A stretch of DNA of 46,650 nt, from the IMG/VR virus record IMGVR_UViG_3300025429_000029, positions 1-46,650 of that record. The stretch is one strand, 5' to 3'. Position numbers and translations under genes: made by a program. This stretch comes from a virus. Its lineage: Duplodnaviria; Caudoviricetes. Position 1 is the first letter of the stretch; the number at the start of each line of letters is the position of its first letter. Below, piece after piece: positions 21,396 to 45,666 of the stretch. The notes beneath the pieces were generated by a model, which was given only the letters and a program-made list of their open reading frames with translations, was not told where the DNA came from and made no database searches.

Positions 21396-22237
21396 GTCGG
21401 GGATTTTTATGTATTGCACAGAATAGCAGTGAAACCGATTACTTGCGCATGGCATATCTACAAGCATTAAGTTGCAAAATAACACAATATGCACATCGAA
21501 ATAGTTTTAGTGTTATTGTTGACCGTGAAACTGCTGATTGTCTTCAACAAAAACATATTGATATATTTGATAATATAATTGTTTTAAAAAACGATCTTGC
21601 ACAAAACAGCAAGATTAAAATGCAAAATGAATGTCAAGTTTTTAATTACAGTCCGTATAAACAAACAATTAAAACCGAAGCAGATATGCTTTTTACGTCT
21701 AATTATGAATTTATTTGGGATTCTTGGGCTTTTGACAAGTTTCATTTTTGCACACATGTTTATACATATGATGGACATTTAATTAAAGACCGTAGTCAGC
21801 GTCAATTGTTTGATGATAGTCTATTACCTGATGTGTATAGTGCTTGGACATACTTTACATATGACTTGGAGTGTAAAGAATTTTATGATACAATGCATTT
21901 AATTATAGATGATTGGGATTATTATCGTGACAGTTATCTTGTAAATTGTCGCTATGATGAACCACGAACCGATGAAGTATATGCGCTTGCTTGTAAAATA
22001 TTAGATATACCTTATAAAGGAAGTGGTTATGGTTTCTTACATATGAAACCAAAATTACAAAGACTTGGGTCACAACAGTCATGGACTGAACAGTTAGATT
22101 TAGATATCAACGCAGAATTAAATGTAACTATTGGTGGTTATAGACAAAATAAACCGCTGCATTATGTAGAAAAAGATTTTGTTACAGACGAATTACTTGA
22201 TAGATATGAATATGGATATAAGCGAAAAAGAGATTAG
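21392..22237 (+). CDS. Putative glycosyltransferase (GT-A fold), paralog of the upstream gene
   Basis: RGFLCIAQN..DY, SPYKQTIKTEADML (ExD), TDEVYAL, HMKP and HYVEK. Confidence 0.7.
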   Translation: MSRGFLCIAQNSSETDYLRMAYLQALSCKITQYAHRNSFSVIVDRETADCLQQKHIDIFDNIIVLKNDLAQNSKIKMQNECQVFNYSPYKQTIKTEADMLFTSNYEFIWDSWAFDKFHFCTHVYTYDGHLIKDRSQRQLFDDSLLPDVYSAWTYFTYDLECKEFYDTMHLIIDDWDYYRDSYLVNCRYDEPRTDEVYALACKILDIPYKGSGYGFLHMKPKLQRLGSQQSWTEQLDLDINAELNVTIGGYRQNKPLHYVEKDFVTDELLDRYEYGYKRKRD

Positions 22238-22436
22238 GGCTTGGTGGGATGATTTTGAGCGCGAACTTGCTACTATGGTCAAACCAAATGATCCAAGTCC
22301 ATCACCAAAACCAAAATTAGAAACACCCAAACCACCTTCTTGGAAGGCTGGCAACACATATTATACGCTTGCAAATGATCGTCAGTTTCCCGTAGACGCA
22401 GAACATCCAAAGGCAATAGGTTGGAATTATGACTGA
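22206..22436 (+). CDS. Hypothetical protein (Pro-rich linker)
   Basis: Fills the gap between genes with overlaps at both ends; ATG at 22206 or 22212. Confidence 0.55.
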   Translation: MNMDISEKEIRAWWDDFERELATMVKPNDPSPSPKPKLETPKPPSWKAGNTYYTLANDRQFPVDAEHPKAIGWNYD

Positions 22437-23367
22437 ATTAATTGATATTAGTGAATTAGATTGTATTTTTTTAAGTTATAAAGAACCAAATGCAGATGCT
22501 AACTTTGCATATTTGCGTTCGTTTGCACCTTGGGCAAAGCGGGTTGATGGTATAGAAGGCAGTGATGCTGCACATAAAGCAGCGGCTGCTGCGAGTGAGA
22601 CAGAACGTTTTATTCTTATAGACGCTGACAACCAACCCAATCCAGAATTTTTCAATCAGCAATTACGCATTAACCAAACAAATGACCGTTGCGTTTTCCG
22701 TTGGCGAGCCAAAAATATCATTAATGGGCTATGTTATGGAAATGGTGGAATTAGCAGTTGGACAAAAACATTTGTTAATAATATGCGCACCCACGAAGCA
22801 ACTGATGGCAGTGACCATACTGCTGTTGAATTTTGCTTTGATGCAGATTATTGGGCCATGCATGATGTGTGGAGCACCACACTACCAAATGCATCACCAC
22901 AGCAAGCATGGCAAGCAGGATTTCGTGAAGGTGTTAAACTGTGTTTAGATCGTGGTCGTCGCCCTACACCAGAAGAATTTGAAAGTGCTACTTGGCATGG
23001 TAATCGTTCAAACCTTGTTATTTGGACAACGGTTGGTGCGGATGTTGAGTTTGGCAAATGGGCAATAATGGGTGCTAGACAAGGTGCTTATATGACTATG
23101 TTTGTTGATGAATGGGATTATCGTGAAGTACGTGATTTTAAAAAACTTGATGACGTATGGCAATATACGGCGGATGATGGTTTACAACGTAGCGAAAATT
23201 ATGCAAATATATTGCGTAAACGTTTAAATCTTGATATTATAAGCATGTCTCCTGAACAAAGTGCTTGGTATAAAAAGCATCAGCGAGCATATCAGAATAT
23301 TGATATTATGTTACCAGAAAGAGATGTAGGAAATGTCATCAGAAGCGCGGCTAGACAACTCTGGTGA
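22429..23367 (+). CDS. Putative glycosyltransferase-like protein
   Basis: FLSYKEPNAD, RVDGIEGSDAAHKAAA, FILIDADN (DxD), YGNGG and AWQAGFREGVKL. Confidence 0.65.
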   Translation: MTELIDISELDCIFLSYKEPNADANFAYLRSFAPWAKRVDGIEGSDAAHKAAAAASETERFILIDADNQPNPEFFNQQLRINQTNDRCVFRWRAKNIINGLCYGNGGISSWTKTFVNNMRTHEATDGSDHTAVEFCFDADYWAMHDVWSTTLPNASPQQAWQAGFREGVKLCLDRGRRPTPEEFESATWHGNRSNLVIWTTVGADVEFGKWAIMGARQGAYMTMFVDEWDYREVRDFKKLDDVWQYTADDGLQRSENYANILRKRLNLDIISMSPEQSAWYKKHQRAYQNIDIMLPERDVGNVIRSAARQLW

Positions 23368-24769
23368 TATTGCCACAGTTAAAGAAGATAAAACTTTAAA
23401 GAGTGATTTCTTAACTACTGCTGAACAAATGCAACAAAAACTTGGACCTGCTCTTTGCATTGCAAAGTGGCAGCAAACCAGTTTGCACCTAACAACTGGT
23501 CATACCAATAGTTGCTATCACCCGCCATTACATAGGATTGATGCTAATGAGTTACAAGATAACCCCAGTGCGCTCCATAACACCATACATAAAAAGAACC
23601 AGAGAGCACGAATGCTTGGTGGAGAGAAGCCAGAAGAATGTTCATATTGCTGGCGAGTTGAAGCCACGGGAAACTTATCCGACCGACATTACAGATCGGG
23701 GGAACCTTGGGCTGCTGAGAAGTTTAGCGAGATTTTGGTTCAAGACCCACTAACGTGGAATCCAAACCCAAGTTATGTTGAAGTAAATTTTAATAGTGCA
23801 TGTAATTTAAGTTGTTCATATTGCAGTCCACAGTTTAGTAGTTCGTGGATGAAGGAGATAAATGATCTGGGTGCTTATCCTACCTCTAATAGTCATAATA
23901 GTTCTGCTTATTTTCGGGGTGATCGTAAACCTATACCGAATCGTGAAAATAATCCTTATGTTGATGCGTTCTGGCGATGGTGGCCCGAACTCTACCCTAA
24001 CCTAAAACATTTTCGTATGACAGGTGGCGAACCACTTATGGATCGTAATACCTATCGTGTATTTGATTTTGTGATAGAGAATCCAAAGAAAGATTTACAT
24101 CTTAATGTAACTTCAAACTTTAGCCAAGATGAATATGTGTTTGACAAGTATCTAACTTATGTTAAACACATGTGTGGTAACCATGTGCTAGAGCATTTCA
24201 TGCAGTTTGTCTCTATCGACGGATACGGAGAACGTGCTGAATATGCTCGCCATGGTCTTGATTTCAAACTTATGCAACGAAATGTTGAACGTTTCTTGGA
24301 AGAAGTTCCAAGCCGTAATAGCGTGACGTTTATTATTACGATGAATGCGCTCAACATTACAAGTTTGCAAGAACTCATGGAATGGATTCTACAACTTCGT
24401 GCCAAGTATAGCAAGACCTATCAACGTATTTGGTTTGATACGCCAATATTGCGTGAACCCGCATGGCAGTGTATTGATATCTTACCGCAAAGTTATGCTT
24501 GGTTCTTGCAAAATATTGTTGGTTGGATGCAACCACAGATTGAAACAGTTGCTACAAGATTTAATGGGTTTAAGGATTATGAAATTGCTAAACTTCAACG
24601 TGTTGTAGATTGGATGCACGAGCATCACCGTGAAGATAAAATAGCTGCGGCAGATTTCTATCGCTTCTTTAGCGAACATGATGCTCGCCGTAAAACAAAT
24701 TTTCTTGAAACATTTCCAGAGATGAGTGATTGGTATAACAACTGTAAGTATTGGGCAGATAATCTATGA
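23333..24769 (+). CDS. Radical SAM protein with N-terminal twitch-like Cys domain
   Basis: CNLSCSYC (Cx3Cx2C) and TGGEP; N-terminal CIAKW..SCYHP..ECSYCW. Confidence 0.9.
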   Translation: MSSEARLDNSGDIATVKEDKTLKSDFLTTAEQMQQKLGPALCIAKWQQTSLHLTTGHTNSCYHPPLHRIDANELQDNPSALHNTIHKKNQRARMLGGEKPEECSYCWRVEATGNLSDRHYRSGEPWAAEKFSEILVQDPLTWNPNPSYVEVNFNSACNLSCSYCSPQFSSSWMKEINDLGAYPTSNSHNSSAYFRGDRKPIPNRENNPYVDAFWRWWPELYPNLKHFRMTGGEPLMDRNTYRVFDFVIENPKKDLHLNVTSNFSQDEYVFDKYLTYVKHMCGNHVLEHFMQFVSIDGYGERAEYARHGLDFKLMQRNVERFLEEVPSRNSVTFIITMNALNITSLQELMEWILQLRAKYSKTYQRIWFDTPILREPAWQCIDILPQSYAWFLQNIVGWMQPQIETVATRFNGFKDYEIAKLQRVVDWMHEHHREDKIAAADFYRFFSEHDARRKTNFLETFPEMSDWYNNCKYWADNL

Positions 24770-25791
24770 ATTTTCCAATATGGCACTGGCATATTGAAAA
24801 TAGTAGTATCTGCAGTCTTCGTTGCCCACGCTGTCCACGTGCTGAAATACCTGATACGCTGGTTCAAACCAGTCTTGGTTTAGATTTCTTTAAGAAAAAT
24901 TTCAATCCTAATTTCTTAAAAGATGTTTGGCAGATAAGTTTTTGCGGAGATGATGGCGATCCAATTTATGGCAAAGAATTTTTAGAAATTATTGAATATC
25001 TTAAAACTATAAAACCTAACTTAAGTCTTCGCATCATTACTAATGGCAGTCATCGCAAAGAAGGATGGTGGAAAAAACTTGCCGTAAATCTAAACCAATA
25101 TGATGAAATTCATTTTAGTTTAGATGGTTGGGATCAAAGTAGCAATGAAAAATATCGTATTAATAGTGATTGGAATAGTATAGAAACTGCTGTTGCAACA
25201 GTGCGTGATACTAGCAAAGTAATAATGACTTGGGCAGCTATCGCTTTTAAGTTTAACCAATATGATATTATGACTATGAAAGATTTGGCTGTTAAGTTTG
25301 GGTTTGATATATTTCAACTTACATACAGTACCAAGTTTGGCAGTAAGTATCCTAACTACAACATAAATGGCAACGATAATTTAGAACCAAGTGAACAATA
25401 TATCGCTAAAGGACATCGTTTTACTCGTCAACTAATCAATCTCACCAACAGAAAATTGCTAGACAATGGCAAGAATTTAATCAATACAGAACTATACACT
25501 AACATCAATCGTGATGGTAATGTTATTCCACTCTGCAAAATTGGCAATAAAGGTCTTTATATAAGCAGTGATGGATATTTTTATCCATGCTGTTGGATGG
25601 CAAATAGATATAATCACACTCTTTGGCAAGAATTTCGCAAACCACAATATAGTTTGCATAACAAAACAATTGATGATATAATAAACGATGATATGTGGAA
25701 TAACTTCTTTGGTAACTTGCATAATTATGATGAGTGCAATTCCAAGTGTTGTTCCTCTAATTTTAATAAAGGATATGCTACATCTTGGTAA
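24766..25791 (+). CDS. Radical SAM protein with C-terminal SPASM/twitch domain
   Basis: CSLRCPRC, FCGDDGDP, TNGS and FSLDG; C-terminal LC..YISSDGYFYPCCW..ECNSKC. Confidence 0.9.
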   Translation: MNFPIWHWHIENSSICSLRCPRCPRAEIPDTLVQTSLGLDFFKKNFNPNFLKDVWQISFCGDDGDPIYGKEFLEIIEYLKTIKPNLSLRIITNGSHRKEGWWKKLAVNLNQYDEIHFSLDGWDQSSNEKYRINSDWNSIETAVATVRDTSKVIMTWAAIAFKFNQYDIMTMKDLAVKFGFDIFQLTYSTKFGSKYPNYNINGNDNLEPSEQYIAKGHRFTRQLINLTNRKLLDNGKNLINTELYTNINRDGNVIPLCKIGNKGLYISSDGYFYPCCWMANRYNHTLWQEFRKPQYSLHNKTIDDIINDDMWNNFFGNLHNYDECNSKCCSSNFNKGYATSW

Positions 25792-27146
25792 GAAGTAAAA
25801 AACCAGAAGAATCCTATCTAGAATATAAACAACGAGTGTTGGATACCAAGAGTGCATCATTTTGCGGTGCTAAGTGGTATAATGCTACTATCTGGTTAGG
25901 CAGTGGTCAAACTACCAGTTGTCACCATCCGTTACCTCATCGGGTAACAGTGGAACAGGTATTAGCCAATCCTTCTGCTCTTCACAATACACTACAAAAG
26001 AAACAACAACGATTACAAATGCAAAAAGGAGAACGTCCAAGTGGATGTGAATATTGTTGGCGTATTGAAGACTCTTCAACAACTGCCATCAGCGACCGTC
26101 TTTACAAAAGTATGATATATAGTGAAGAAGAATTAAACACAGCATTTCAATTACCGAGTGATACTGACGTAAACCTTCGCACACTGGAGATAGCATTTGA
26201 TCGCACTTGTAATTTTGCTTGTAGTTATTGTAATCCCGCTTTTAGTACTACTTGGGTTAAAGACATTAAAGTCAATGGACCATACAATAATTTGGTTAGT
26301 GATGGTCGCAATCATTTTACCCATTTACATGATTCTTCTCAGTTATATGGGTTTACTGATACCAATCCATATGTAGAAGCCTTTTTTAAGTGGTGGGAAA
26401 GTGATCTTCATAAAACACTTCGAGAATTGCGCATAACTGGTGGCGAGCCACTTATGAGTGGTCACACTTGGAAATTACTTGATTGGTTCAAAGAAAATCA
26501 TGGTAAAAGTAAAACTAAGTTAGCCATTAATAGCAATCTAGGTATGGATAATAAAAAATTAAATGAGTTTATTGAAGTTGTTAGCAATATACCACACGTT
26601 GAGGTTTACACAAGTTGCGAGGCTTTTGGAGAACAAGCAGAATATATACGTGATGGTTTAAGTTATAAACAGTGGTTTGATAATTTAGTTTCTTTGCATA
26701 GTAGCGGAGCAATTAAACAACTGCATGTTATGGCAACAATTAATGGATTGTGTTTATTATCATTACCTAATTTTCTAAAACACCTAATGGATTTTAAGAT
26801 AGGTCGTGGTAAAAACTCACTTACTTTTACCTTAAATATCTTACGCTTTCCTAGTTTTCAAAGTCCAACAGTCATGCCCTATGGGATACGTGAAGAATGT
26901 GCAGTTGAATTGCAAAATTTTTTGGCAAGTTATGAACACACAAATTACTTGCACGAAATGGAAATCGAACACGTTAAGCGATTGATTGAATATCTTAGAA
27001 AAGAACAAACACCACACGAAGGTGCAAGTCATCATGATTTATTAGAACAGGATTTCAAAACTTTTTACGAGCAATATGATGTTCGTCGTAATAAAGATTT
27101 TATAGAAACATTTCCAGATTTAGAGGATTGGTATAATGGCATATAA
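25785..27146 (+). CDS. Radical SAM protein with N-terminal twitch-like Cys domain
   Basis: CNFACSYC and TGGEP; N-terminal CGAKW..SCHHP..GCEYCW; paralog of 23333. Confidence 0.9.
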   Translation: MVRSKKPEESYLEYKQRVLDTKSASFCGAKWYNATIWLGSGQTTSCHHPLPHRVTVEQVLANPSALHNTLQKKQQRLQMQKGERPSGCEYCWRIEDSSTTAISDRLYKSMIYSEEELNTAFQLPSDTDVNLRTLEIAFDRTCNFACSYCNPAFSTTWVKDIKVNGPYNNLVSDGRNHFTHLHDSSQLYGFTDTNPYVEAFFKWWESDLHKTLRELRITGGEPLMSGHTWKLLDWFKENHGKSKTKLAINSNLGMDNKKLNEFIEVVSNIPHVEVYTSCEAFGEQAEYIRDGLSYKQWFDNLVSLHSSGAIKQLHVMATINGLCLLSLPNFLKHLMDFKIGRGKNSLTFTLNILRFPSFQSPTVMPYGIREECAVELQNFLASYEHTNYLHEMEIEHVKRLIEYLRKEQTPHEGASHHDLLEQDFKTFYEQYDVRRNKDFIETFPDLEDWYNGI

Positions 27147-28431
27147 TTATAACGGCAAAGAACCACTTAAAACACCTCTTAAAAAATTATCTGAAAAACA
27201 CCAAGATTTAATTATGAAGAATCCTAGTTTCTGCATATATCCTTGGATACATTTATATTCACATCCTACTGGTGAAGCGTATAATTGTTGCAATATTCCT
27301 CATGAACACGCAATTGGAAATACAAAAAAACAATCTTTGGAAGAAATATGGAAAAGTCCAGAGATGCAGACCGTAAGACAAAAGATGCTATCTGGCGAAA
27401 AAATTCCAAGTTGTAGACGCTGCTATGAACAAGAAGAAAATGGATTTTTTAGTCTGCGGTTAAGTGCTAATAAACATTTTGGTCATCACATCGCACTTAC
27501 GGATGATCCTGATCCACCTATGAAACTTGTTTATTGGGATATTCGTTTTTCTAACTTATGTAATTTGCGATGCCGAACATGCGGTCATTTTTTCAGTTCA
27601 AACTGGTATGATGATCAAGCAAAAATAATTGAAGATGAAAAGGGCAAGGGTTGGGATAAAGTTTGGAAGAAAAACAATCAGCGTATCAACTTTTCAGGTA
27701 GGTCAGAAGACGATATATGGAATCAACTAGAACAGCAAATTGATAATCTTGAACAAGTATATTTTGCTGGTGGCGAACCATTAATTATGGAAGAACACTA
27801 TCGTCTGCTTAATGAATTAATTGCACGTGGTCTCACGAATGTTAAACTTATATACAATACCAATTTTAGCCAACTTACCTACAAAAAGACAAATGTGTTA
27901 GAACTTTGGAAACAGTTTAAGAGTGTAAGTGTTGGAGCAAGCCTTGATGCTATGGGACCACGAGCAGAGTATATACGCAAAGGAACTGAATGGTCAGAAG
28001 TAGAAAAAAATAGAGAAGAAATGTTGAAAATCTGCCCAACGGTTGATTTTTATATTAGTCCTACTTTAAGTATTATGAATGCGCATCATATAACTGATTT
28101 TCATCGTGATTGGGTTGAAAAAGGTTTATTAAAACCACAGGACTTAAATATTAATATTCTTCAAGACCCACCACATTATCGTATAGATACACTTCCATAT
28201 GAATATAAGTTAGATATTCAAGAAAAATATGTCGAACATATCGAATGGTTGCGACCACTAGATAGTTTGAGACGCGCTACCATTGGTTTTGAAAGTGCAA
28301 TCAAATTTATGATGGCTGATGATAAAACTAATTTATTGCCACTATTCAAATCAAAAACTGACCAATTAGATAGAATACGTAATGAACATATATTAAATTA
28401 TATACCTGAGTTGAGTTGCATTTATGAATGA
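27136..28431 (+). CDS. Radical SAM protein with N-terminal twitch domain
   Basis: CNLRCRTC, AGGEP and YNTN; N-terminal CIYPW..NCC..IGN..CRRC. Confidence 0.9.
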   Translation: MAYNYNGKEPLKTPLKKLSEKHQDLIMKNPSFCIYPWIHLYSHPTGEAYNCCNIPHEHAIGNTKKQSLEEIWKSPEMQTVRQKMLSGEKIPSCRRCYEQEENGFFSLRLSANKHFGHHIALTDDPDPPMKLVYWDIRFSNLCNLRCRTCGHFFSSNWYDDQAKIIEDEKGKGWDKVWKKNNQRINFSGRSEDDIWNQLEQQIDNLEQVYFAGGEPLIMEEHYRLLNELIARGLTNVKLIYNTNFSQLTYKKTNVLELWKQFKSVSVGASLDAMGPRAEYIRKGTEWSEVEKNREEMLKICPTVDFYISPTLSIMNAHHITDFHRDWVEKGLLKPQDLNINILQDPPHYRIDTLPYEYKLDIQEKYVEHIEWLRPLDSLRRATIGFESAIKFMMADDKTNLLPLFKSKTDQLDRIRNEHILNYIPELSCIYE

Positions 28432-29590
28432 TAATTTTTGCATATTGCCATTTGTAAGTATTGAAGCAGACCCTATGGGTAAATGCAAGGTATGTTGTTT
28501 AAGTTATGAAACGATTCCAAATGTTGATCTTAAAACAAATACACTTACAGAAGCATTTAATAGTCCATATATGGATGACCTTCGTATGAGTTTTCTTAAT
28601 GGTGAAAAACCAGAGGGATGTGCCCGTTGCTGGAATGAGGAAGCAAGTGGCAGAACCAGTAAGCGCATGCATAGCGCAGTTCGACTTAATAAAATAATTG
28701 CAGACACAAAATTTAGTAGTCCGCATGATGCAAAACTTATGTTTCTTGATCTTAAATTAGGAAATATTTGTAATTTAAAATGTAGAATATGTGGCAGTTT
28801 TAGTAGTTCTAAATGGGCGCAAGAAGAAATTGATATCTATCCTGAAAACCAAACTGCAAGAGACAACCTTGTAAATGGACGCTGGCCTCGTGAGTCAAAA
28901 AACTTTTGGGAAGACCTAACTCAATTGCTTGCAAATACAAAATATTTTGAGTTTACTGGCGGTGAGCCTTTTCTTATTGATGAGCATTTTGATTTGCTTG
29001 CAATTGCAGTTGAATTTGGATATGCAAGCAATATTGAAATCCACTATAATACTAACACTACAACATTTCCAACTCGTGGGTTAGAACTTTGGCCACATTT
29101 CAAGTTAGTTGAAATTGCTTTTTCCATAGATGATATAGGTCCACGATTTGAATATCAACGCTATGGTGCTAATTGGAATAAGAGCATGGAAAATCTACAA
29201 AGATTCAAAGATTTTCGCAAACAGAATAAGAATATCAAACTGCAATTATGTTTGACAACTAATGTTCAAAATTTTTATTATATAGATGAAATGTGTGAGT
29301 GGATTCCAAAACAAAGATTTGATTATGTATATTTTAATGTCTTGCATGATAGTTGGTATTTTAATATTTCTCGCTTAAACCATGAAGCAAAACAGTTAAT
29401 ATATGAGAAGCATAAAAACTATGCAGGTCCATTTAGCAACGAGATTCAAAATCTATTGCAGTTTATGATGCAAGGTGAAGATAGCGATTGCACAGATTTG
29501 GTCAAACAACTAACAAATAGTGATGCGCAACGCAGTCAAAAGTTTAGCGATCACCATAGTGAGATAGCAGCGGTAATCGGTTATGAATGA
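28424..29590 (+). CDS. Radical SAM protein with N-terminal twitch domain
   Basis: CNLKCRIC, TGGEP and YNTN; N-terminal CILPF..VCC..CARC. Confidence 0.9.
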   Translation: MNDNFCILPFVSIEADPMGKCKVCCLSYETIPNVDLKTNTLTEAFNSPYMDDLRMSFLNGEKPEGCARCWNEEASGRTSKRMHSAVRLNKIIADTKFSSPHDAKLMFLDLKLGNICNLKCRICGSFSSSKWAQEEIDIYPENQTARDNLVNGRWPRESKNFWEDLTQLLANTKYFEFTGGEPFLIDEHFDLLAIAVEFGYASNIEIHYNTNTTTFPTRGLELWPHFKLVEIAFSIDDIGPRFEYQRYGANWNKSMENLQRFKDFRKQNKNIKLQLCLTTNVQNFYYIDEMCEWIPKQRFDYVYFNVLHDSWYFNISRLNHEAKQLIYEKHKNYAGPFSNEIQNLLQFMMQGEDSDCTDLVKQLTNSDAQRSQKFSDHHSEIAAVIGYE

Positions 29591-29591
29591 T

Positions 29592-30200
29592 TTATTTTTT
29601 ATTCCACGGTATTTTTCCAAAGTTTGGATTTTTATCTCCTCGTTTGCTTTCACTTAACTTTCTTTTGTGTTCTTCTGATAATTTTCTACCCTTTCTAGAA
29701 ATTGACATTTTATTTTTTGCCTCATCGGTGTGTGGAACTCCAACATTCCATGCTTTATGCCCCTTCAATTTATTTCCAATCTCTGCTAATTTTTGATTAG
29801 TTTCTTTTGTCTGTCCTCTATTCCATGCAGTTTTTCCAAACATTGGATTATTTTTTCCTTTGCTCGCATTGCTGAGTTTTTCTCTTGTTTCTTCCTTGAC
29901 AATAATTTTACTTCTACCATCGCCCCCACTTGTCATGTTTAATAAACGACCAGTCCCAAGGTCTTCTCGTCCATAAAAATCAATCAACAATATTTCTATA
30001 TTATATGCTTGATTTTCTGTAAGATTTTGATATAATATTATTATTCTATTTTTGTCTTTGGGGGCAGAAACTCTTCTGCCGTGTGTTGCAAATGCTCTTT
30101 TACCAATGCCTTTGCCAATATAATATGGAGTTAAATCAGTTTCTCGTAAAAACGCATAGACATAATAATTTTGTGGGAATTGTTGGGTATTAAATACCAT
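29592..30200 (-). mobile_element. Free-standing GIY-YIG homing endonuclease with NUMOD3 repeats
   Basis: YYVYAF..PYYIGKG..RA, E..LI..YGR and LLNMT.GGDG; NUMOD3-type repeats (EETREKLS, HTDEAKNKMS, SEEHKRKLS, NPMFGK.AWN). Inverted relative to its neighbours. Start ATG 30200 lies downstream of AAAGGA. Confidence 0.85.
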
Positions 30201-30263
30201 TGCTGTGTTCCTTTTCAACATAGAGTAGGCGGGATTGCAGTCCGTGGCCTACACTATTATTTA
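30201..30263 (-). promoter_or_regulatory. Late promoter and structured leader of the endonuclease
   Basis: TAAATA (30263-30258), then stem GTAGGC/GCCTAC (30252-47 with 30230-25), then an imperfect stem with the SD in its loop. Confidence 0.55.
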
Positions 30264-30271
30264 GGCAAATA

Positions 30272-31594
30272 ATGACAGAAAATAATAAAGAACAATTTAT
30301 GGACTTCTGCCTAGCCCCATTTACGCACACATTTATTTCTCCTGTCGGTGAAAGACGCCTATGCTGTGCTTCTCGTGAACCTGCCCAAAATTTTCAACAG
30401 TATATTGACACGGCTGGCGGCGATGGACAATTTAACCCTCTTACATTAAAGGATTGGTGGAATGGCGAACATATTAGAGAAATTAGAAAGCAATGGTTGG
30501 CTGGTACGGTTCCATCAGCATGTGAGGTCTGCGATAAAAAGTTACTTAACACTTCTGTATATCGTGATTACTTTGGACATCTTTTTGGTCATCTACGAGA
30601 TGCTGCGGTGGCTAATACAGATGCTGATGGTTATACAACTTTAGAACCAATCTCATGGGACTATCGTTATAGTAATGTATGCAACTTCAAATGTCGCATG
30701 TGTGGCGATATGCTAAGTTCGGCATGGGAAGTTGAAGTTCGCAAGAATGATATGGTTGATTTGTCTAATCCCAAGAATCACTGGATGCAACCAAAGAATC
30801 GCCATGCTATTCGTAACTTTACTCGTGATTTTGTAATACCTGAGTTTCGCACGGCGATTGAAAACAAAACTGTGCGTGAAATATATTGGGTAGGTGGCGA
30901 ACCGTTGTTATATGATGAACACTGGACATTCATGCGCCTCATCGTAGAACTTGGTTATGCCGATCAAGTTCGTATAAGATATAATACTAATTTAAGTTAT
31001 TGCAAAGATTCACAAGGAACATTGTGGGAATTATTACAACACTTTCCACACTGGGAAATATGCGCAAGTTTAGATGCAACAGGAGAAATCGGTGAGTATA
31101 TTAGAACTGGTCTTAGTTATAATATGTTTTTACAAAATTTTAGACAAGGTATTGCACACGCAAGACATAATCGTCAGATGCGTATTGACTTTACTCTTAC
31201 TACCATTGGGTTATTTGATTTGGAAAATATCATCAATCTTGTTGATGAATTAAATGTACAACTGTTAAGTAAAGTAATTTTTGCTTTCTCGCCAGATATT
31301 TTGTTAAGTCCGCTTGCGCTGCCTCGTGATATACTAATTCCATTTATACAAGATATTCAAAGCCGTATTAAGCCACGCATTACTTACCGCACACAAAGTT
31401 TATGGGATGTGTTAGAACATCTTAAAACTCGTCCTACTTTTATAGAACAATACCCTGATACGTATGAGCGTGAGGCAATAAAAGGCAAAGCACATCTTTT
31501 AAAATTGGAATCTATTCGCAAAGATGCTAAAATAACTATGAATAAAATATTATCAAACAGACCTGAAATATTAAAATGGTGGAATAATATATGA
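30272..31594 (+). CDS. Radical SAM protein with N-terminal twitch domain
   Basis: CNFKCRMC, VGGEP and YNTN; N-terminal CLAPF..LCC..CEVC. Confidence 0.9.
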   Translation: MTENNKEQFMDFCLAPFTHTFISPVGERRLCCASREPAQNFQQYIDTAGGDGQFNPLTLKDWWNGEHIREIRKQWLAGTVPSACEVCDKKLLNTSVYRDYFGHLFGHLRDAAVANTDADGYTTLEPISWDYRYSNVCNFKCRMCGDMLSSAWEVEVRKNDMVDLSNPKNHWMQPKNRHAIRNFTRDFVIPEFRTAIENKTVREIYWVGGEPLLYDEHWTFMRLIVELGYADQVRIRYNTNLSYCKDSQGTLWELLQHFPHWEICASLDATGEIGEYIRTGLSYNMFLQNFRQGIAHARHNRQMRIDFTLTTIGLFDLENIINLVDELNVQLLSKVIFAFSPDILLSPLALPRDILIPFIQDIQSRIKPRITYRTQSLWDVLEHLKTRPTFIEQYPDTYEREAIKGKAHLLKLESIRKDAKITMNKILSNRPEILKWWNNI

Positions 31595-32697
31595 CAATAG
31601 TAATGACCATGCGAAATCCGTTAGATAAATCTAGTGTTTTTCCTATTTTTATTGAGCCTAATGATACTCAATTAGCAAGAGATTGGTGCCGAGTATTAAA
31701 GTTAGAGATTCAAAACAATAGCCATCTAGAAAAAAATTATTGTTGGCATGGTTGGCCAAATGGCGGCAGAAATTTAGAATATCTTACTAGCGAATTAAGT
31801 CGTCATACTTTTAACATATGGAAGTTTAATGAATTAGGTATATGGCAAATCGCAGGTCTAAAAGAAATTAAAATCAATACCGTATATAATCCAGAAAATG
31901 TTATGTTGCCGCTTACCGATGATCGTGATAGCGGCGGTCCTAATCATACGGTTATGAACGAGGTCCATAATTACTTTGAACATCTACAAGGCACAGTTGA
32001 AAATATTTCGCCTTATTATAAACTAGCAACGCCATCTGTAAAATATAGTATTAGACAACTAAACAATTTATGTCATGAAATTGAAACACTATGTTTAAGT
32101 TTGCGCAAACAAAAACTCAATCCACAGTGGGTAAGACCTAGCCAAATTACTACATTCTTAAATGCAAAGAGATATAATCTTGTAGACGAACACCGTATTG
32201 GTTTTGCAAAAAATGGTTATGACCGCAAGTTTGGTCATGTGTATATGCACTGGACACAAATTGGCAAGACACTTATGGAAGTATTTCGAGATGAAGGTGC
32301 ACCAGTTTTAGACCAAGCCACTTGTGATGCCATCACCCACTTACAATATTATAGTGGTGAATTTGATATTGAATGGGGTCGTGATGTATGTTATGGCAAA
32401 CATGAATGGCATACAAGTGAAATAGATGCTTTTAATGCTTGGCTAAAGCGCAACGGTTATAATCCAAAAGATTTAAGTCTTAGTTTAGGATATCTTGAGA
32501 TTGGTAAAATTAATTTGGAAATGAGTTTTGGCACAACTGATATAGACAAAATTTGGGAAATTATGGGTGATCATTTAGACATTTATAGTTTAGAACTAGA
32601 TGGCGAACATGCAATATATGATTATAGTTGGGCTGATAGTGATTATGGACAAAGTCAAATAAATTACTTAATGCCTGGTTATAACAGTTATGTTTGA
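31591..32697 (+). CDS. Hypothetical protein in the radical SAM cluster
   Basis: 368 aa with overlaps at both ends; NEVHNYFE, LNNLCHEIE and YMHWTQIGKT. Confidence 0.75.
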   Translation: MTIVMTMRNPLDKSSVFPIFIEPNDTQLARDWCRVLKLEIQNNSHLEKNYCWHGWPNGGRNLEYLTSELSRHTFNIWKFNELGIWQIAGLKEIKINTVYNPENVMLPLTDDRDSGGPNHTVMNEVHNYFEHLQGTVENISPYYKLATPSVKYSIRQLNNLCHEIETLCLSLRKQKLNPQWVRPSQITTFLNAKRYNLVDEHRIGFAKNGYDRKFGHVYMHWTQIGKTLMEVFRDEGAPVLDQATCDAITHLQYYSGEFDIEWGRDVCYGKHEWHTSEIDAFNAWLKRNGYNPKDLSLSLGYLEIGKINLEMSFGTTDIDKIWEIMGDHLDIYSLELDGEHAIYDYSWADSDYGQSQINYLMPGYNSYV

Positions 32698-34240
32698 TAT
32701 AGTTTGGTATGATTATAGTGACGGTGATATTGAAAGTTTAATATCACAAGCCAAGACACAAAGCAAAACAGAATATGTTTGGCTTGCACATAAACAACTT
32801 GATTATACGCAATTTAATTTCCGTTGTTTGCCTAATCTTCATCAGGCACATTATAAACATGCTTGGCCAAGTCATAACAATCCACAACACTATACCACTT
32901 GGTTGATACCAGTTGATAACGATAGCGGAACTGTGTATCATGAACGCATGATTCCTACTATCAATTCAAAATATTATGATATGTGTTTGTTGAACACAAA
33001 TAGTTTTGAAAATACAATAGCCGTAGATTTTCAGGTTCACTTGCTAACAACCATGCAGGCTGCAATTGAAAACGCTATTAAAAAATGTACTAAACCTTGG
33101 TTATGGATTATTGCTGATTGCTGTGAATATGATGATTTTAATTTTGATTGGTTGCCAAGCAATTATGATATGAATTATATTCACTGCTGGCCAAGTGGTA
33201 ATTGTGAAAAAGGTGATACATTTTTAATTAATGTTAATACTTATAAACGAGGCGAACGCAATTATAACTTTAATCATGAACCACTAAAACGCAAACGTTG
33301 GCCAAGCGCAAAAATCACGCATGATAGTTTGGCACAAGAACTTAATGCAACACCAAGACTAAGTTCAATTTATACGATTTATTCTTATACTGGTTTTATT
33401 GATTATCCAGATGTTTGTTTATGGGAAAACCGACCCGTAATAAGTTTGAATCGTAGCAATAGCAGTTGTCTTGTGCCTCGTGATTGTATTGTTAAAAAAG
33501 AAATATATGAATACCCATATCTACTACGTGAAACAAGTCATGGACTTGATCTTGCAATTGATGTTATTTTTATTGATAATGGTGAAAGTTGCGCAAAAGA
33601 AAATTATGAAAGATGTAAAAAGTTAGAACCACTTACAAAATATTGTAGTGGAGTTAATGGCAGATTGGCTGCATACAAAAAGGCTGCAAACCATAGTAAT
33701 TCTGATTGGTTTATTGCTGTATTTGCTAAGTGTCATGTTAAAAATAATTTTGAAGATTTTGATTGGCAACCAGATTTTTGGCAAGAACCTAAACATTATA
33801 TTTTTTATAATCATAACCGTAATAACAATTTAATTTATGGACATATGGCACCTATTGCATATAATACAAAACTACTACTACAAAATACTGGTGGTCTTGA
33901 TATGACACTTGCACAAGCGCACACCACAGTGCCAATTTGTATAAGTGAAACATATATTGAAAATGATCCATTGTTGACATGGCGAACAACATTTCGTGAA
34001 GTTGTTAAACTATTGCATTATAGTAATGAAAATCCAAGTATAGAAAATGAATATAGACTATGGTCTTGGAAAAATGTAACTAAAGGCAAAGATTCTATTT
34101 GGCAACAACGTGGTGTTAAAGATGCGCAAGATTATTATCATGTATGTGGCGGCGATGAAAGTTTGTTGCTGCTAACCGTTGAGTGGGATTGGTTATTGGC
34201 ACATTTTAATAGTCTTTATAGTGATGAAATAACTGTTTGA
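32690..34240 (+). CDS. Multi-domain glycosyltransferase-like protein
   Basis: C-terminal domain is paralogous to 22429 (GVNGRLAAYKKAA, LIYGH, TWRTTFREVVKL); two N-terminal internal repeats. Confidence 0.6.
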   Translation: MFDIVWYDYSDGDIESLISQAKTQSKTEYVWLAHKQLDYTQFNFRCLPNLHQAHYKHAWPSHNNPQHYTTWLIPVDNDSGTVYHERMIPTINSKYYDMCLLNTNSFENTIAVDFQVHLLTTMQAAIENAIKKCTKPWLWIIADCCEYDDFNFDWLPSNYDMNYIHCWPSGNCEKGDTFLINVNTYKRGERNYNFNHEPLKRKRWPSAKITHDSLAQELNATPRLSSIYTIYSYTGFIDYPDVCLWENRPVISLNRSNSSCLVPRDCIVKKEIYEYPYLLRETSHGLDLAIDVIFIDNGESCAKENYERCKKLEPLTKYCSGVNGRLAAYKKAANHSNSDWFIAVFAKCHVKNNFEDFDWQPDFWQEPKHYIFYNHNRNNNLIYGHMAPIAYNTKLLLQNTGGLDMTLAQAHTTVPICISETYIENDPLLTWRTTFREVVKLLHYSNENPSIENEYRLWSWKNVTKGKDSIWQQRGVKDAQDYYHVCGGDESLLLLTVEWDWLLAHFNSLYSDEITV

Positions 34241-35316
34241 ATTATATAATCTACATCATCATCGCTCAAATGCGTATGGGATGGCAGACTAATTATTTTA
34301 CCAGCCAACTGTTCGCTTCTTTTACAACTATGGGTATTCCATGTTTTTGCAAACTGCTGCATATGTAGTGGATGTTTGTAGTGACTACTAAAACCAATAT
34401 TAGCATATTGCAAATAATCACAGGTTTTGCCATAACTAGGAGTAATGATTGGCATAACATACCAGTTATATAAGTTCTGATGCGCAAAGCGTGGCATTAC
34501 AATACGATTGTTATCGTAAAATGCGTTACAATATTTTTTTATAATTTCTGTTTTTCTTTTAAAAAAATTATCGTAGTTTGGTATATTTGCTGCAACTAAT
34601 GCTGCTTGTATGCTTGTAATACGTGATGTATAACCAATATTATCAATATTGCCATCTATGCCGTAGTGTGATTTGCCATTTGTGCAGATAGAGTCCAATA
34701 GTTTTACATCGACTTTATTTGTAACGATAGCACCGCCACCGCCACTGCCACCAAAGTTTTTATAGGCATTAAAACTAATACAAACAGTATCTGCTATAGT
34801 TTGATCATAATCACTTGTGGTAATACAAAAACTTTGCGCTGCATCTATGATAAGTTTAAGATTTCTATCATCGCACCACTTTCTAAGTGCAACAATATCG
34901 CAGCCTTGACCATATAAATCAACTGCTATAACTGCACCTACTTCGCCGCTATATGCGTTATAAACACGATCAAGATCATGCAAATCAATCAACCAACTAT
35001 CATCTGTATCAACAAATGTTGGTATGTATCCTGCTGCAATAACTGCTTGTGCAGTAGCAGCATAAGTCATCGTAGGTATAAGCACACGAGAGTTTTGTGG
35101 TAGTTTAAGTGCAAGTAGCGAAGTATGCATAGCAGAAGTGCAACTGCTAGTAAGTTGAACATCTGCACCATTATACAAATTACTGATAAAACTTTTTAAT
35201 TGTAATTCGTGCTGACCACGATATACTTCGCCAAACTCTAATGTAAAAGATAAGTTTTTATAGATCAGTTCAGCATTATCACGATACTGTTCTGGCAAAT
35301 CACTAAAGTTTATCAT
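34216..35316 (-). CDS. DegT/DnrJ/EryC1/StrS family PLP-dependent sugar aminotransferase
   Basis: SSCTSAM, P.MTY.AT, VDLYGQ, IIDAAQS, SFNAYKNFG..GGG (PLP lysine) and HY..PLH.Q. Confidence 0.9.
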   Translation of the reverse strand: MINFSDLPEQYRDNAELIYKNLSFTLEFGEVYRGQHELQLKSFISNLYNGADVQLTSSCTSAMHTSLLALKLPQNSRVLIPTMTYAATAQAVIAAGYIPTFVDTDDSWLIDLHDLDRVYNAYSGEVGAVIAVDLYGQGCDIVALRKWCDDRNLKLIIDAAQSFCITTSDYDQTIADTVCISFNAYKNFGGSGGGGAIVTNKVDVKLLDSICTNGKSHYGIDGNIDNIGYTSRITSIQAALVAANIPNYDNFFKRKTEIIKKYCNAFYDNNRIVMPRFAHQNLYNWYVMPIITPSYGKTCDYLQYANIGFSSHYKHPLHMQQFAKTWNTHSCKRSEQLAGKIISLPSHTHLSDDDVDYIIQTVISSL

Positions 35317-38809: not shown

Positions 38810-40075
38810 TTAGTCCTCGTAGTAGGCATGGACACCAAACGGTGGTTCAATGTCCTTGCGATACTTGTTATGAATGATCCACACAGTATCACAATAGTCA
38901 GCGTCCCCCCAAGAACCAAAGGGTTCGCCATCGGTAAAGACAATAAGCAACTTAGGTTCAATTGCTTCAATCTTCATCCAATTCCAGTTTACTTCAAAGT
39001 CAGTTCCACCAAAGCCCCTAGCTTCATAGTTTACAAGTTCATCACCATCAGCAGTTGTGTAATCAACTGGATTGTGGATTTGTGTATCAAAACACCAAAT
39101 CTTAACCTTGTAATCATCATAAGACTGCATGATACCGTTGACTTCACTAAAGAAGTTATTCAATTGTTCTTGACCAATTGAGCCGCTAGTATCAATAGCC
39201 ACGCAAACATCAATAGCTTGATCTTTACGCATGTTAGGCAAAACAAATCCTTGTGAGAACATTTTCTTGTTAGGAATAGTCCAAGTGTAATCATTCTTAA
39301 CAGTAGATTGGATTTGTTGTGTAATGAGTTCACGCCAGTTGATTTTAGGTTGGGTAAGTTCATTAATCATACGCTTGACGTTGCCAGGAACATCGCCAGC
39401 GCCAGCACTTTGTGCTGCTGCAAGCATGGCTTCTTTGAACTCGTCTTTAATTTTTTGACGTTCTTCATTAGACAGCACAGGACGACCCTTGCCATCTTTA
39501 TCGCCATCTTTACCTTCGCCATCGCCACTGCCCTTGCCATCCTTTTCAGGATCAAGATGGTCATCAAGCAATTGGTCAAGCAAATCTTCGACGTTGATTT
39601 TCTGTGCGTTCTTGATCAAGTCTTCATAAACTTGTTCAAAGTTCCAATCGTCATATTTGCGATCATGCAGAACAGGCACAACAGTAATACGTTGACCAAG
39701 GTTATACTTGATGCAGTCAGCATTAACCACATAGTCCATAGCGATGTTAGCAAGATCACGCTGATAACCACGACCACGGTTCATGTGATCATAAGCGCAG
39801 TGAAGCAACTCATGGCAGAACAAAAACATCATTTGATTAGTAGGCAATTTCAGGATGAAGTCGCTGTTATAATAAAAGTGACGACCATCGGTTGCGGCGG
39901 TTGTGAGCCAACTATCTGCATTTACCAATTTAAGACGCATAGCAAGATTGCCAAAAAATGGTTGTTTAAGCACAAGAGCAATACGAGCCTTGAGAATTGC
40001 TTGACGTGCATTATGGTCAAGCGTTTGGTCAATCGTATCGGACAATTTGCCTGCACCTTGTTTCATTTTAGCCAT
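38810..40075 (-). CDS. VWA-domain protein with N-terminal putative metallopeptidase (DUF2201-like)
   Basis: PFFG, TAATDG and HELLH (HExxH); MIDAS motif DTSGS, GGTDF and FTDG. Confidence 0.88.
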   Translation of the reverse strand: MAKMKQGAGKLSDTIDQTLDHNARQAILKARIALVLKQPFFGNLAMRLKLVNADSWLTTAATDGRHFYYNSDFILKLPTNQMMFLFCHELLHCAYDHMNRGRGYQRDLANIAMDYVVNADCIKYNLGQRITVVPVLHDRKYDDWNFEQVYEDLIKNAQKINVEDLLDQLLDDHLDPEKDGKGSGDGEGKDGDKDGKGRPVLSNEERQKIKDEFKEAMLAAAQSAGAGDVPGNVKRMINELTQPKINWRELITQQIQSTVKNDYTWTIPNKKMFSQGFVLPNMRKDQAIDVCVAIDTSGSIGQEQLNNFFSEVNGIMQSYDDYKVKIWCFDTQIHNPVDYTTADGDELVNYEARGFGGTDFEVNWNWMKIEAIEPKLLIVFTDGEPFGSWGDADYCDTVWIIHNKYRKDIEPPFGVHAYYED

Positions 40076-40099
40076 AATTGTTCTCCTATCAATATATAC

Positions 40100-40127
40100 A
40101 TAATATCACATAATCTTATTATGTCAA
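40100..40127 (-). promoter_or_regulatory. Sigma70-type promoter
   Basis: TTGACA, 16 bp, TGa-TATTAT; AGGAG RBS downstream. Confidence 0.7.
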
Positions 40128-40168
40128 AAGAAAAATAGGGGGGAAGTGCTGCGAACACTACCCCCCTA
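40126..40168 (-). terminator. Rho-independent terminator
   Basis: TAGGGGGG..CCCCCCTA stem (40136-40168) followed by TTTTTCTTTT on the - strand. Confidence 0.75.
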
Positions 40169-40240
40169 ACTGTAGGAAAAATCACACATTTTTCCTACGT
40201 TATCTCGCCCTCACTGTGATGGAGAACGATAGGGGCGAGA

Positions 40241-41368
40241 TTAGTCACGCACCGCCGCCAGAATGAAATCGCCATTCTTGGCATGGTATTCCTTATAGTG
40301 TGCCATTTTGCTTGTTTTCATCGGCAACTTATAGTTACGAAGAATAGTAGCAAGCATCATAACTTGCAATTCCGTATCCATGTTATCAAGGAAAAATCGG
40401 AATACGTTGTCAAGTTCGTTATGCCAAGCAACATTTTCACTATCTTTCATGCGTTCACCGCCGCGACGTTCAAAGCTATCCTTGAGTTCATAGCAGCAAG
40501 AAACGGTAAGAGAATATTTTGCACCGATATCTTTTGCCTTGAGTTCTTTGACTTTGCCAGAAAGGATATCACTTGGGTTTGGCATTTGACTTGCAACCTT
40601 ACGATGGGCTGCAAATTTAAGTGCAACACCTTCACCAACCGTGCCAGCAACAAGGTCATTCAATTCGGTATCATTAAGGTCTTCTTGTAGAAGATCGCTC
40701 ACAAATGACCAAGAACGAGGAGTAGCAAAAGATGCACCGCTTGAACGTGGATCAAAATTGAACAAATCACCTTTGTTACAAGTCACATAAGCCACAACGT
40801 CAGGATTGATATCGTGATTAAGTGCCCAATCATTCCATGATTCGAAGTCAACACGCAAGTTCAAGTGAACAAAACGGTTAGCAAGAGGTGATGGCATACG
40901 ATACACAACACCACGATCAGTATCACGGTTACCAGCAGCAACGATAACAACATTATCAGGAAGTTCATAAGTGCCAACACGACGATTAAGAACCAACTGA
41001 TATGCAGCAGCCTGCGTAGCAGGTGCGGCACTATTCATTTCGTCAAGAAAAAGTACCACAACAGGATACTTTGCGGCTTCTTCGGCTGTTGGCAGATCAG
41101 GCGGTGCATTCCACATAGCATTACCAACAGTAGGATTGTAGTAGAGAACACCCTTCAAGTCAGAAGGGTCCATGAGTGCAAGACGCAAGTCATACAACTT
41201 GCCGCCCATGCTTTCACAAATATCAGCAACCAGTTCAGACTTGCCGATACCAGGCGCACCCCACAAGAAGATAGGACGCTTACGCTTCATACATACCATA
41301 ATTTCACGCTTCGCAGAAGCAAGCGTAACTGTCCGAATTTCGGACACCGCATCATTAACTTTAGCCAT
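40241..41368 (-). CDS. MoxR-like AAA+ ATPase
   Basis: Walker A GAPGIGKS, Walker B LFLDEMN, AAGNR, LANRF and TPRSW. Confidence 0.92.
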   Translation of the reverse strand: MAKVNDAVSEIRTVTLASAKREIMVCMKRKRPIFLWGAPGIGKSELVADICESMGGKLYDLRLALMDPSDLKGVLYYNPTVGNAMWNAPPDLPTAEEAAKYPVVVLFLDEMNSAAPATQAAAYQLVLNRRVGTYELPDNVVIVAAGNRDTDRGVVYRMPSPLANRFVHLNLRVDFESWNDWALNHDINPDVVAYVTCNKGDLFNFDPRSSGASFATPRSWSFVSDLLQEDLNDTELNDLVAGTVGEGVALKFAAHRKVASQMPNPSDILSGKVKELKAKDIGAKYSLTVSCCYELKDSFERRGGERMKDSENVAWHNELDNVFRFFLDNMDTELQVMMLATILRNYKLPMKTSKMAHYKEYHAKNGDFILAAVRD

Positions 41369-41397: not shown

Positions 41398-41425
41398 ATA
41401 ATAACATATTATTCGTGGTTGTCAA
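41398..41425 (-). promoter_or_regulatory. Sigma70-type promoter
   Basis: TTGACA, 16 bp, TGt-TATTAT; GGAG RBS downstream. Confidence 0.7.
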
Positions 41426-42101
41426 GCACTTTTTTTGTCTCTAAAACGGGAAAAATTTTCAATTTAATACGGACATAGTGCAGTCTTGTCTGGTAATCGT
41501 CATCATGTTTATGCACACGGGCTGTCAAAATAATGACACTTTCACGTTCCATTTTTTCACTTAATGGAAAGCATACGAGGCACCCGTCTTCTGTAACTCC
41601 AGTATGATACCATTTGTTATAATTATAACTAAAAACTGCTGATTTTATAGTGACTTTTGCCTCAATATTGTCGCCAATTTTGCCAATATGACGGCTATTT
41701 TCTTTCAAAATACGAATTTCATCACGTGCATTTTCACGTCCAATAGCATTATTATAAGAATTTGGAACACTAGCAATTAGTGCTAAGGTCTTGAAATCAT
41801 TAGCAGAAATTTCTTTTTGTTCAGTAAGTAGAACCAAGTTTTTCCAATAGTCGTGCAGAGTGCCACTAATAAGTTCAATCATTTTGCTATCAAGATATTC
41901 CATAATTTCTGTTGCATTTTCAATATCTTGCGACAAAACATTAACGTGCTCAATTTCAGGGTTGAGAATATCACGCATAAGTGCGCCGTTGCTTTCCTCA
42001 CCTTTTGCTTTGTCAGCGTCATACCGTTTGATATAACGACCATTGATCCGTTGTGCCGCACAAGCAGCCGAAATAGCATCTTTTAGTTTAATATGTGTCA
42101 T
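41409..42101 (-). CDS. Hypothetical protein with possible C-terminal OB-fold
   Basis: 230 aa; SRHIGKIGD followed by a beta-rich segment ending QTRLHYV; ATGA overlap with the upstream small gene. Confidence 0.7.
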   Translation of the reverse strand: MTHIKLKDAISAACAAQRINGRYIKRYDADKAKGEESNGALMRDILNPEIEHVNVLSQDIENATEIMEYLDSKMIELISGTLHDYWKNLVLLTEQKEISANDFKTLALIASVPNSYNNAIGRENARDEIRILKENSRHIGKIGDNIEAKVTIKSAVFSYNYNKWYHTGVTEDGCLVCFPLSEKMERESVIILTARVHKHDDDYQTRLHYVRIKLKIFPVLETKKVLDNHE

Positions 42102-42214
42102 TTTGCACCTTTATGCTTGTTTTTACGGCTATAACTACCCTTGCCCTTGCGGGGGGTAACAATTTTTTGACGGTATTTGGGGTCCGTTAGGGACTTTGCA
42201 ATAAGGCTACGCAT
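42098..42214 (-). CDS. arfA: ArfA-like alternative ribosome-rescue factor (38 aa, missing from the ORF track)
   Basis: Translated by hand: MRSLIAKSLTDPKYRQKIVTPRKGKGSYSRKNKHKGAK*. Shows L.DP.[FY]RQ and KGKGSY.RK.KH with ArfA spacing, a GGAG SD and its own promoter. Confidence 0.8.
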   Translation of the reverse strand: MRSLIAKSLTDPKYRQKIVTPRKGKGSYSRKNKHKGAK

Positions 42215-42238
42215 CGCTAGTTCTCCATCTATAATGCT

Positions 42239-42266
42239 AATTTAGCATATTTTTTGGATTTGTCAA
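42239..42266 (-). promoter_or_regulatory. Sigma70-type promoter with a palindrome over the -10 box
   Basis: TTGACA, 16 bp, TGc-TAAATT; palindrome ATGCTAA-T-TTAGCAT at 42234-42248. Confidence 0.65.
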
Positions 42267-42643
42267 CCTAAAGTTTCTATGGCTTGGCGTAAATTTCCGT
42301 CACAAATTGCCAATAATGTAGATAATTCTCCATCTATTAGGAATAGTTCCCCACTACTCATTTTCAAAAACCAAGGAAACTTGTGGTAACGATCCATTAG
42401 AACTAATTCTTTGCCATTAATTTGATACTTTTTCTTATCAATATTATGTTTATAAAATTTATAACCTGCGTTTGTTAATAATTCAAAAGCAGTATTGTTT
42501 AATCTAAATCCAAAGTTTTTGTTATTATGATACCAGTATAGCACGTAAATATTTTTAAGATTAGTGTTAGGAATAGGCGAATTTTCACCATGTGCTAAAT
42601 GATATAATTCATGTGTCCAATCAGTTTTAGATTTGTCTTTCAT
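42263..42643 (-). CDS. Hypothetical protein
   Basis: 126 aa; W..GFRL..F, LMDRY..PWF. Confidence 0.7.
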   Translation of the reverse strand: MKDKSKTDWTHELYHLAHGENSPIPNTNLKNIYVLYWYHNNKNFGFRLNNTAFELLTNAGYKFYKHNIDKKKYQINGKELVLMDRYHKFPWFLKMSSGELFLIDGELSTLLAICDGNLRQAIETLG

Positions 42644-45348: not shown

Positions 45349-45666
45349 TTAATTTGGTACACGGTAACAGCGGCGTTGAGTTCCAAGAAAATTTCCAAAA
45401 CGATCAAAAATTTCTTCACGACGACATTCGGTGTGGTAATAATTTTCATCATCATAACGTGGTTGATTTGCAATAGCACCACCAACCATACCACCGATTA
45501 TAAGACCACCAATAAGTGGCGCAACCCAATTACCGCCACCACGATTTTCATAATGTCCATAACCAGGACGTGGACCTTCGTAACGACGATCACGCCACTG
45601 TGCGTTTGCTGTCGTTGCAGAAAGTAAGGTGACGCTTGCAAGTAGGATTGCTAAAGTCTTGCGCAT
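45349..45666 (-). CDS. Exported protein with signal peptide and glycine-zipper segment
   Basis: MRKTLAILLASVTLLSATTANA signal peptide; GGLIIGGMVGGAIA; two Cys; ATG 45666 follows GGAG. Confidence 0.75.
   Translation of the reverse strand: MRKTLAILLASVTLLSATTANAQWRDRRYEGPRPGYGHYENRGGGNWVAPLIGGLIIGGMVGGAIANQPRYDDENYYHTECRREEIFDRFGNFLGTQRRCYRVPN

Follow-up and report, generated by a model that had tools for sequence, protein, structure and literature searches.

Escherichia coli ArfA (YhdL; PF03889; PDB 5U4I, 5MGP, 5MDV, 5H5U, 7OJ0) is reported to activate RF2 through an N-terminal minidomain, in which Thr7 and Lys8 bind h44 and Ala18 packs between C1914 and Ile11, and to bind RF2 Trp319 through Leu19, Leu24 and Phe25 (PMC5378476). 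The same source describes an A18T variant that binds RF2 without activation or release, and a protein truncated at Asn47 that is still functional; most of 34 single-cysteine mutants, A18C among them, are described as retaining activity (PMC4245945). For ArfA to act, the mRNA is further reported to extend no more than about 3 nt beyond the ribosomal P site, and E. coli ArfA/RF2 pairs are reported to be species-specific. The E. coli arfA mRNA is described as cut or terminated at a stem-loop within the ORF and kept low by tmRNA, brfA as carrying an in-ORF terminator, and the BrfA/ArfA design as a back-up made only upon tmRNA failure (PMC8012679). BrfA of Bacillus and ArfT of Francisella are likewise release-factor-dependent; BrfA shares a KH motif with the phage peptide analysed here but activates RF2 with a different N-terminus, and ArfT uses both RF1 and RF2 and has no tmRNA-linked control. 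Reviews, in their accessible text, restrict ArfA to some beta- and gammaproteobacteria (PMC8874680), and present it as always throttled by tmRNA and as needing the N-terminal minidomain for RF2 activation.

Phages also encode members of the family. Thirty phage records were matched by tblastn, and in six of them the matching gene is already described as a ribosome-rescue factor; when isolate phages were searched by tblastn with a different short homologue there was no match, indicating that the search is insensitive and that six of 30 is a lower bound. PF03889 is present on 46 of 47 close homologues, 21 of which are named ArfA by JGI or NCBI. The first-pass annotation had presented the factor as unrecognised, and these names show that short phage ArfA had already been annotated. 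The gene described here is therefore not new as a kind, and it lacks two classical E. coli-type features, the activating minidomain and the non-stop control.

Three phage homologues belong to other phage groups, with other gene contexts, than the phage described here, and share with it a short signature in which position 17 holds a small residue and positions 24–25 a pair that is basic or aromatic. The Brevundimonas phage Kikimora protein (USN15577.1; 36 aa) is as short as our peptide and stop-terminated; that of Citromicrobium phage RXM (USM11455.1; 60 aa), in contrast, has retained both the tail and a hairpin within the ORF; and Pelagibacter phage HTVC027P gp30 (58 aa) has a long N-terminal extension and scores 20.2 bits, under the Pfam cut-off. 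HTVC027P gp30 has been named ArfA and speculated to promote phage protein synthesis (PMC12753301); its expression data, the only ones found for a phage arfA, place it as 'Late' in the supplement of that report and as early and late in its text, and the early signal rests on 0–6 raw fragments in the first 12 samples. A jumbo-phage overview covers tRNAs and PTH2 as means of rescue, and its accessible text does not mention ArfA (PMC7824862). Searches of openly accessible articles turned up no experiment on the activity of a phage-encoded or short ArfA.

We note that three further isolate phages carry unannotated ArfA-family ORFs above the Pfam cut-off: Caulobacter phage Cr30 (L005:1953-2099); Ralstonia phage RsoM2USA (L004:2001-2123), on the strand opposite an annotated hypothetical gene; and Roseobacter phage CRP-212 (L003:1983-2108), in another frame inside the 3' end of gp38.

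The arfA locus and its insertion slot

The window, by which we mean the whole stretch of DNA analysed, is a 46,650-bp virus record whose neighbouring genes show 34–55% identity to those of jumbo phages of the type represented by PA5oct/Paride, Atu_ph07, Phosso and SCTP-2. The features of the arfA region are as follows.

42214 to 42098, minus strand: ArfA-family ORF, 38 aa plus TGA, with 13 Lys/Arg and one Asp, equivalent to E. coli ArfA positions 12–49
42226–42223, minus strand: Shine-Dalgarno sequence GGAG, 8 nt ahead of the arfA ATG
42266–42239, minus strand: putative sigma-70-type promoter-like site, with TTGACA at 42266–42261, a 16-nt spacer and a TG-extended TAAATT at 42244–42239
42234–42248: inverted repeat of 7 bp with a 1-nt centre, overlapping the −10 box
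41409..42101, minus strand: gene for a 230-aa phage protein, whose start overlaps the arfA stop (ATGA, 42101–42098)
42263..42643, minus strand: upstream gene of 126 aa, a conserved neighbour that marks the insertion slot

The ORF, Shine-Dalgarno sequence, TTGACA promoter and ATGA coupling described by the first-pass annotation are thus all present on the minus strand at 42214–42098, and four residues do follow the KH motif before the stop, as it had stated. The stop codon that ends the 126-aa gene upstream falls within the −35 box. A longer N-terminus from an upstream start was considered and rejected: an in-frame TAA is found 10 codons before the ATG and no ATG, GTG or TTG intervenes, so that the window ORF is not extendable; a 6-codon N-terminal extension is present in a few relatives. 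It is likely that arfA and the 230-aa gene are on one transcript. The 230-aa protein matches phrog_3628 (E=4e-5), and no function for it was found in Pfam or PHROGs. Other palindromes occupy the place of the inverted repeat in relatives, and this repeat is a possible operator. A 7-bp palindrome with conserved arms and a variable 3-nt centre lies just upstream of the 230-aa gene in the arfA-less relatives L027, L063 and L066.

A general promoter scan of the window found 34 sites against 31.1 in shuffles, which is not above chance by itself. The pattern TTGACA-N13-TGnTAnnnT, picked post hoc, occurs four times (45719, 42266, 41425, 40127) against 0.075 expected, and all four sites stand just ahead of minus-strand gene starts. 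Host-type promoters in phages are usually early, and the early timing proposed by the first-pass annotation may hold here. No RNA data set was listed among the 24 sequencing runs.

The slot was followed through 69 loci (L041-L109; L012 left out), 41 of which span both flanking genes; arfA is present in 26 of the 41 and absent from 15. Thirteen of the 26 alleles are of the KH type seen in the window, 12 are of a second type, about 58% identical to the first and without KH, and one is of a third type, so that KH is missing from 13 of 26. In all 15 arfA-less relatives TTGACA stands directly before the 230-aa gene, and in arfA-less relatives the GGAG junction serves that gene directly; in one such contig a promoter and Shine-Dalgarno sequence nearly identical to those of an arfA-bearing contig are fused at the ATG to the 230-aa gene. 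The promoter is therefore common to arfA and the 230-aa gene, and is not arfA's own as had been proposed. Trees of three flanking genes (22–27 de-duplicated loci) require 6–7 changes of arfA state against a minimum of three, and in no bootstrap tree do the arfA-less loci form a single clade; many forks have low support. These patterns suggest repeated gain or loss of arfA at the slot, probably with recombination; given the latter and the low fork support, we read no order of events.

Family membership and comparison with E. coli ArfA

The ORF matches the Pfam ArfA profile PF03889 at 41.8 bits (cut-off 25.5, E=7e-11), as the first-pass annotation had anticipated, and ArfA is the only family matched by the peptide in Pfam and the PDB; NCBIfam gave no match for the 38-aa peptide, and PHROGs gave three unnamed families. 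With phmmer, six PDB sequences matched at E<=10, all ArfA and all gapless, and the alignment to solved E. coli ArfA agrees with the gapless one given in the first-pass annotation. A profile built from 62 short homologues matched six ArfA chains at E of about 1e-13 to 1e-14 among seven PDB matches, the sole non-ArfA one being at E=0.054; neither the peptide nor this profile matched a BrfA chain in the PDB.

Relatives fetched through the neighbouring genes (34 and 70 loci) yielded 11 distinct close alleles, all of which keep the start, the stop and the ATGA overlap. They differ by 24 synonymous and 14 non-synonymous minimal distinct changes (binomial p=9e-8 against 25 of 111 synonymous sites, with amino-acid-changing steps counted conservatively and alleles that are not independent). 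Pairwise against the window, pS is 0.20–0.53 and pN 0.01–0.09, and variable sites fall 8/3/21 by codon position. The ORF is a real gene under purifying selection.

Phage residue n corresponds to E. coli ArfA residue n+11, a numbering checked against the residues named in PMC5378476, and the match is gapless over positions 16–46. The phage peptide keeps Pro23, an aromatic residue at 25, Arg26, Gln27, KGKGSY, Arg41-Lys42 and Lys44-His45, but begins at position 12, without E. coli residues 1–11, and carries Ala18->Lys, Leu19->Ser, Leu24->Lys, Phe25->Tyr and Glu30->Val. Neither the activating minidomain (Thr7, Lys8, Ile11, Ala18) nor the Leu19/Leu24/Phe25 patch is thus found in its E. coli form, and one of the three Trp319-binding residues is kept (Phe25, as Tyr). 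Most of the minidomain responsible for RF2 activation in E. coli is thus missing from the phage peptide, a loss that the first-pass annotation did not mention. In the segment at 25–30, which in the phage peptide would bind RF2 by beta-strand addition, Tyr25, Arg26 and Gln27 are kept and Glu30 is replaced by Val; the basic channel-binding half (E. coli positions 31–49, with KGKGSY and KH) is complete, and the peptide ends at position 49.

Among the 62 short homologues, a set gathered by similarity to the phage peptide, Ala17 is found in 57, Lys/Arg18 in 54, Leu20 in 60, Tyr/Phe25 in 59 and Val30 in 56, and Lys34, Gly35 and Arg41 are invariant. A residue pattern shared so widely is a clade signature and not decay.

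Control of expression and homologues in bacterial genomes

The phage protein differs from E. coli ArfA in having no C-terminal hydrophobic tail and no in-ORF hairpin, in being stop-terminated by an ordinary stop codon and in being phage-borne. Folding of the phage arfA mRNA is no better than that of shuffles (z −0.01 and −0.84), and the terminator rule found no hairpin with a U-run ahead of the stop; an RNase III-type or terminator hairpin was accordingly rejected, as was a small GNRA-loop hairpin at 42141-42159, which is unsupported by the synonymous changes of other alleles and absent from the second allele type. The non-stop mRNA of classical E. coli-type ArfA, with its hairpin or terminator and degradable tail, is not seen here. 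With no hairpin or terminator before the stop, arfA should escape tmRNA feedback, and on this point the earlier proposal of escape from E. coli-type control stands; its term "constitutive" would be better put as "set by the phage promoter".

Bacterial genomes, when scanned for homologues, yielded 42 loci, comprising 25 in Pelagibacterales, one contig of the window's phage type inside a MAG, and 16 others. Short chromosomal ArfA proteins from SAR11 and others are cellular and resemble the phage peptide in having Lys/Arg at 18 and 24 and a short N-terminus. The 25 Pelagibacterales genes are stop-terminated like the phage gene, ending 5–16 codons past position 40, and are too short to contain a terminator. 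Unlike the phage gene, ten of the 16 non-SAR11 loci retain the tail and the in-ORF terminator, a GC hairpin and U-run 30–52 nt after codon 29 that is followed by a tail of 29–61 codons. As a control, 579 windows taken from these loci gave 7 positives under the terminator rule, and two of the hairpins folded at z −3.8 and −3.9. Position 18 is Arg, Gln or Asp in seven of these ten homologues and position 24 is Lys/Arg in eight; in four the protein appears to begin at position 10–11, the starts being inferred; two loci that were checked have cellular neighbours (GntR and DHDPS family; RF3 and MscS). A terminator is present in one of 42 anchored viral loci, most of which are the phage clade itself, and phages of this clade thus carry the unthrottled form.

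The loci with the intrinsic-terminator-like element are L111, L113, L116, L117, L125, L126, L133, L134, L141 and L143, with the element at about 2085-2140 in most. Five of the ten homologues are alphaproteobacterial, placing BrfA-like control in a group reported to be without arfA (0 of 2,376 Alphaproteobacteria in Table 1 of a survey, PMC11633108). In L141 (50-2267) genes for RF3 and MscS directly precede an alphaproteobacterial arfA homologue; in E. coli, a link between arfA and mscL is reported in the title of one paper.

Possible roles of the phage peptide

We think it fairly probable that the 38-residue phage peptide acts as an ArfA-like rescue factor, and quite likely that it works like ArfA when a switch of release-factor partner is allowed for. 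On host ribosomes that have stalled at the end of cut messages, the peptide would bind in the vacant mRNA channel and recruit host RF2 by beta-strand addition at positions 25–30, and the nascent chain would then be released; RF2 would be activated through a rewired short helix in place of the E. coli minidomain. Output would be set by the phage promoter and not by tmRNA load, and the phage may benefit from additional rescue, free of tagging, at times during infection when nucleases of the host or mRNA turnover yield non-stop messages. An anti-toxin role is plausible given the small 3' overhang on which ArfA is reported to act.

In favour of rescue we count the Pfam score above cut-off, the PDB matches of the 62-homologue profile, the invariant Lys34, Gly35 and Arg41, a C-terminus beyond the functional Asn47 truncation and the reported activity of A18C in E. 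coli. We also count a complete relative (G001; 338,435 bp with terminal repeats, and an arfA allele 92% identical), which carries arfA, 21 tRNA matches, 19 of them over cut-off, and bS21, and has no release factor of its own. Counted against it are the missing residues 1–11, the changes at 18, 19 and 24 together with the binding of RF2 without activation by A18T E. coli ArfA, the reported species specificity of E. coli ArfA/RF2 pairs, the absence of KH from half of the slot alleles, and a gene that is dispensable in 15 of 41 loci. Rescue is still the best reading since chromosomal relatives with similar changes have the in-ORF terminator, a back-up rescue design. A non-stop design that makes the peptide when tmRNA is overwhelmed would fit a back-up rescue factor and would poorly fit an inhibitor, an argument that draws on relatives with inferred start codons and not on the phage peptide itself.

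The main rival to rescue is a tmRNA-blocking antagonist that fills the mRNA channel, perhaps holding RF2 closed as A18T does, and either blocks tmRNA-SmpB or parks ribosomes. Loss of the activating minidomain alongside a fully kept channel-binding half, the reported overlap of the ArfA and SmpB sites, and the lack of tmRNA feedback would all suit such an antagonist, but the short signature occurs at 41 bacterial-genome loci, ten of them with the in-ORF terminator, a cell would hardly produce a rescue inhibitor just as rescue fails, and jammed non-stop ribosomes would cost the phage ribosomes; we regard it as unlikely. The same word applies to rescue with other partners, either RF1 or both release factors as for ArfT, or at mid-message stalls arising from tRNA loss. 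The patch that explains strict RF2 dependence is two-thirds replaced, Val and not Glu is at position 30 in 56 of 62 short homologues, and ArfT is reported to work with RF1 and RF2, yet the aromatic residue at 25 persists in 59 of the 62, and a tail that binds the mRNA channel implies that this channel must be empty. The position of the ORF between the promoter and Shine-Dalgarno sequence and the 230-aa gene, with the ATGA overlap in all 11 close alleles, would also suit a cis-acting leader whose translation only controls the coupled gene, with no role in trans. Protein-level purifying selection on family residues, homologues in unrelated contexts in other phages and retention of the 230-aa gene in relatives without arfA make this very improbable, and a chance Lys/Arg-rich ORF or decaying remnant is scarcely credible: the ORF is very short, is absent from 15 of 41 related loci and has no NCBIfam match, but this has to be set against the Pfam E value, the Shine-Dalgarno sequence, the fixed start and stop and the synonymous excess.

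A bolder view is that the phage short-ArfA clade is a mechanistically distinct ribosome effector, free of both the activating minidomain and tmRNA feedback, either a plug that out-competes tmRNA-SmpB or a factor of switched release-factor specificity, forming a swappable 38-residue counter-defence module behind an existing promoter; we hold this to be possible, if doubtful. The gene is ordinary in that databases already label many such ORFs, and a natural 38-residue version under selection bears on the range of ArfA, on tmRNA throttling and on the need for the minidomain. If rescue by the peptide is active, it would define a minimal RF2-activating element, and phages would contribute rescue capacity of their own that escapes regulation. 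Binding that is not followed by activation would instead make the peptide an inhibitor by which phages act on trans-translation, which is itself pursued as a target for antibiotics.

Four related records, of which G001 is the complete one, contain no phage tmRNA, RF-1 domain or PTH2, and no tRNA array adjoins arfA in the window or in nine loci. The bS21 gene of G001 (L195:1453-1701, minus strand) lies near a GMP-reductase-like ORF, named from its sequence, and comparison of bS21 with the PDB was uninformative on the host. Shine-Dalgarno use and a BA14K-like ORF weakly point to a proteobacterial host. The latter (45349-45666, minus strand) encodes a small protein and follows one of the four promoter sites, and its nearest Atlas clusters are Pseudomonadota. 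Ten sequencing runs contain at least half of the region's words, all of them labelled freshwater metagenome and dated 2017, one of which is possibly the source. Elsewhere in the window, a MoxR-type AAA ATPase and a DUF2201 metallopeptidase/VWA protein form a pair (38810-41368, minus strand), each behind the same promoter pattern, and 21392-35316 holds an extended series of radical SAM/SPASM-type ORFs close to a DegT-family aminotransferase, with a Pfam check covering three radical SAM ORFs and the aminotransferase; this series is likely to serve surface or DNA modification.
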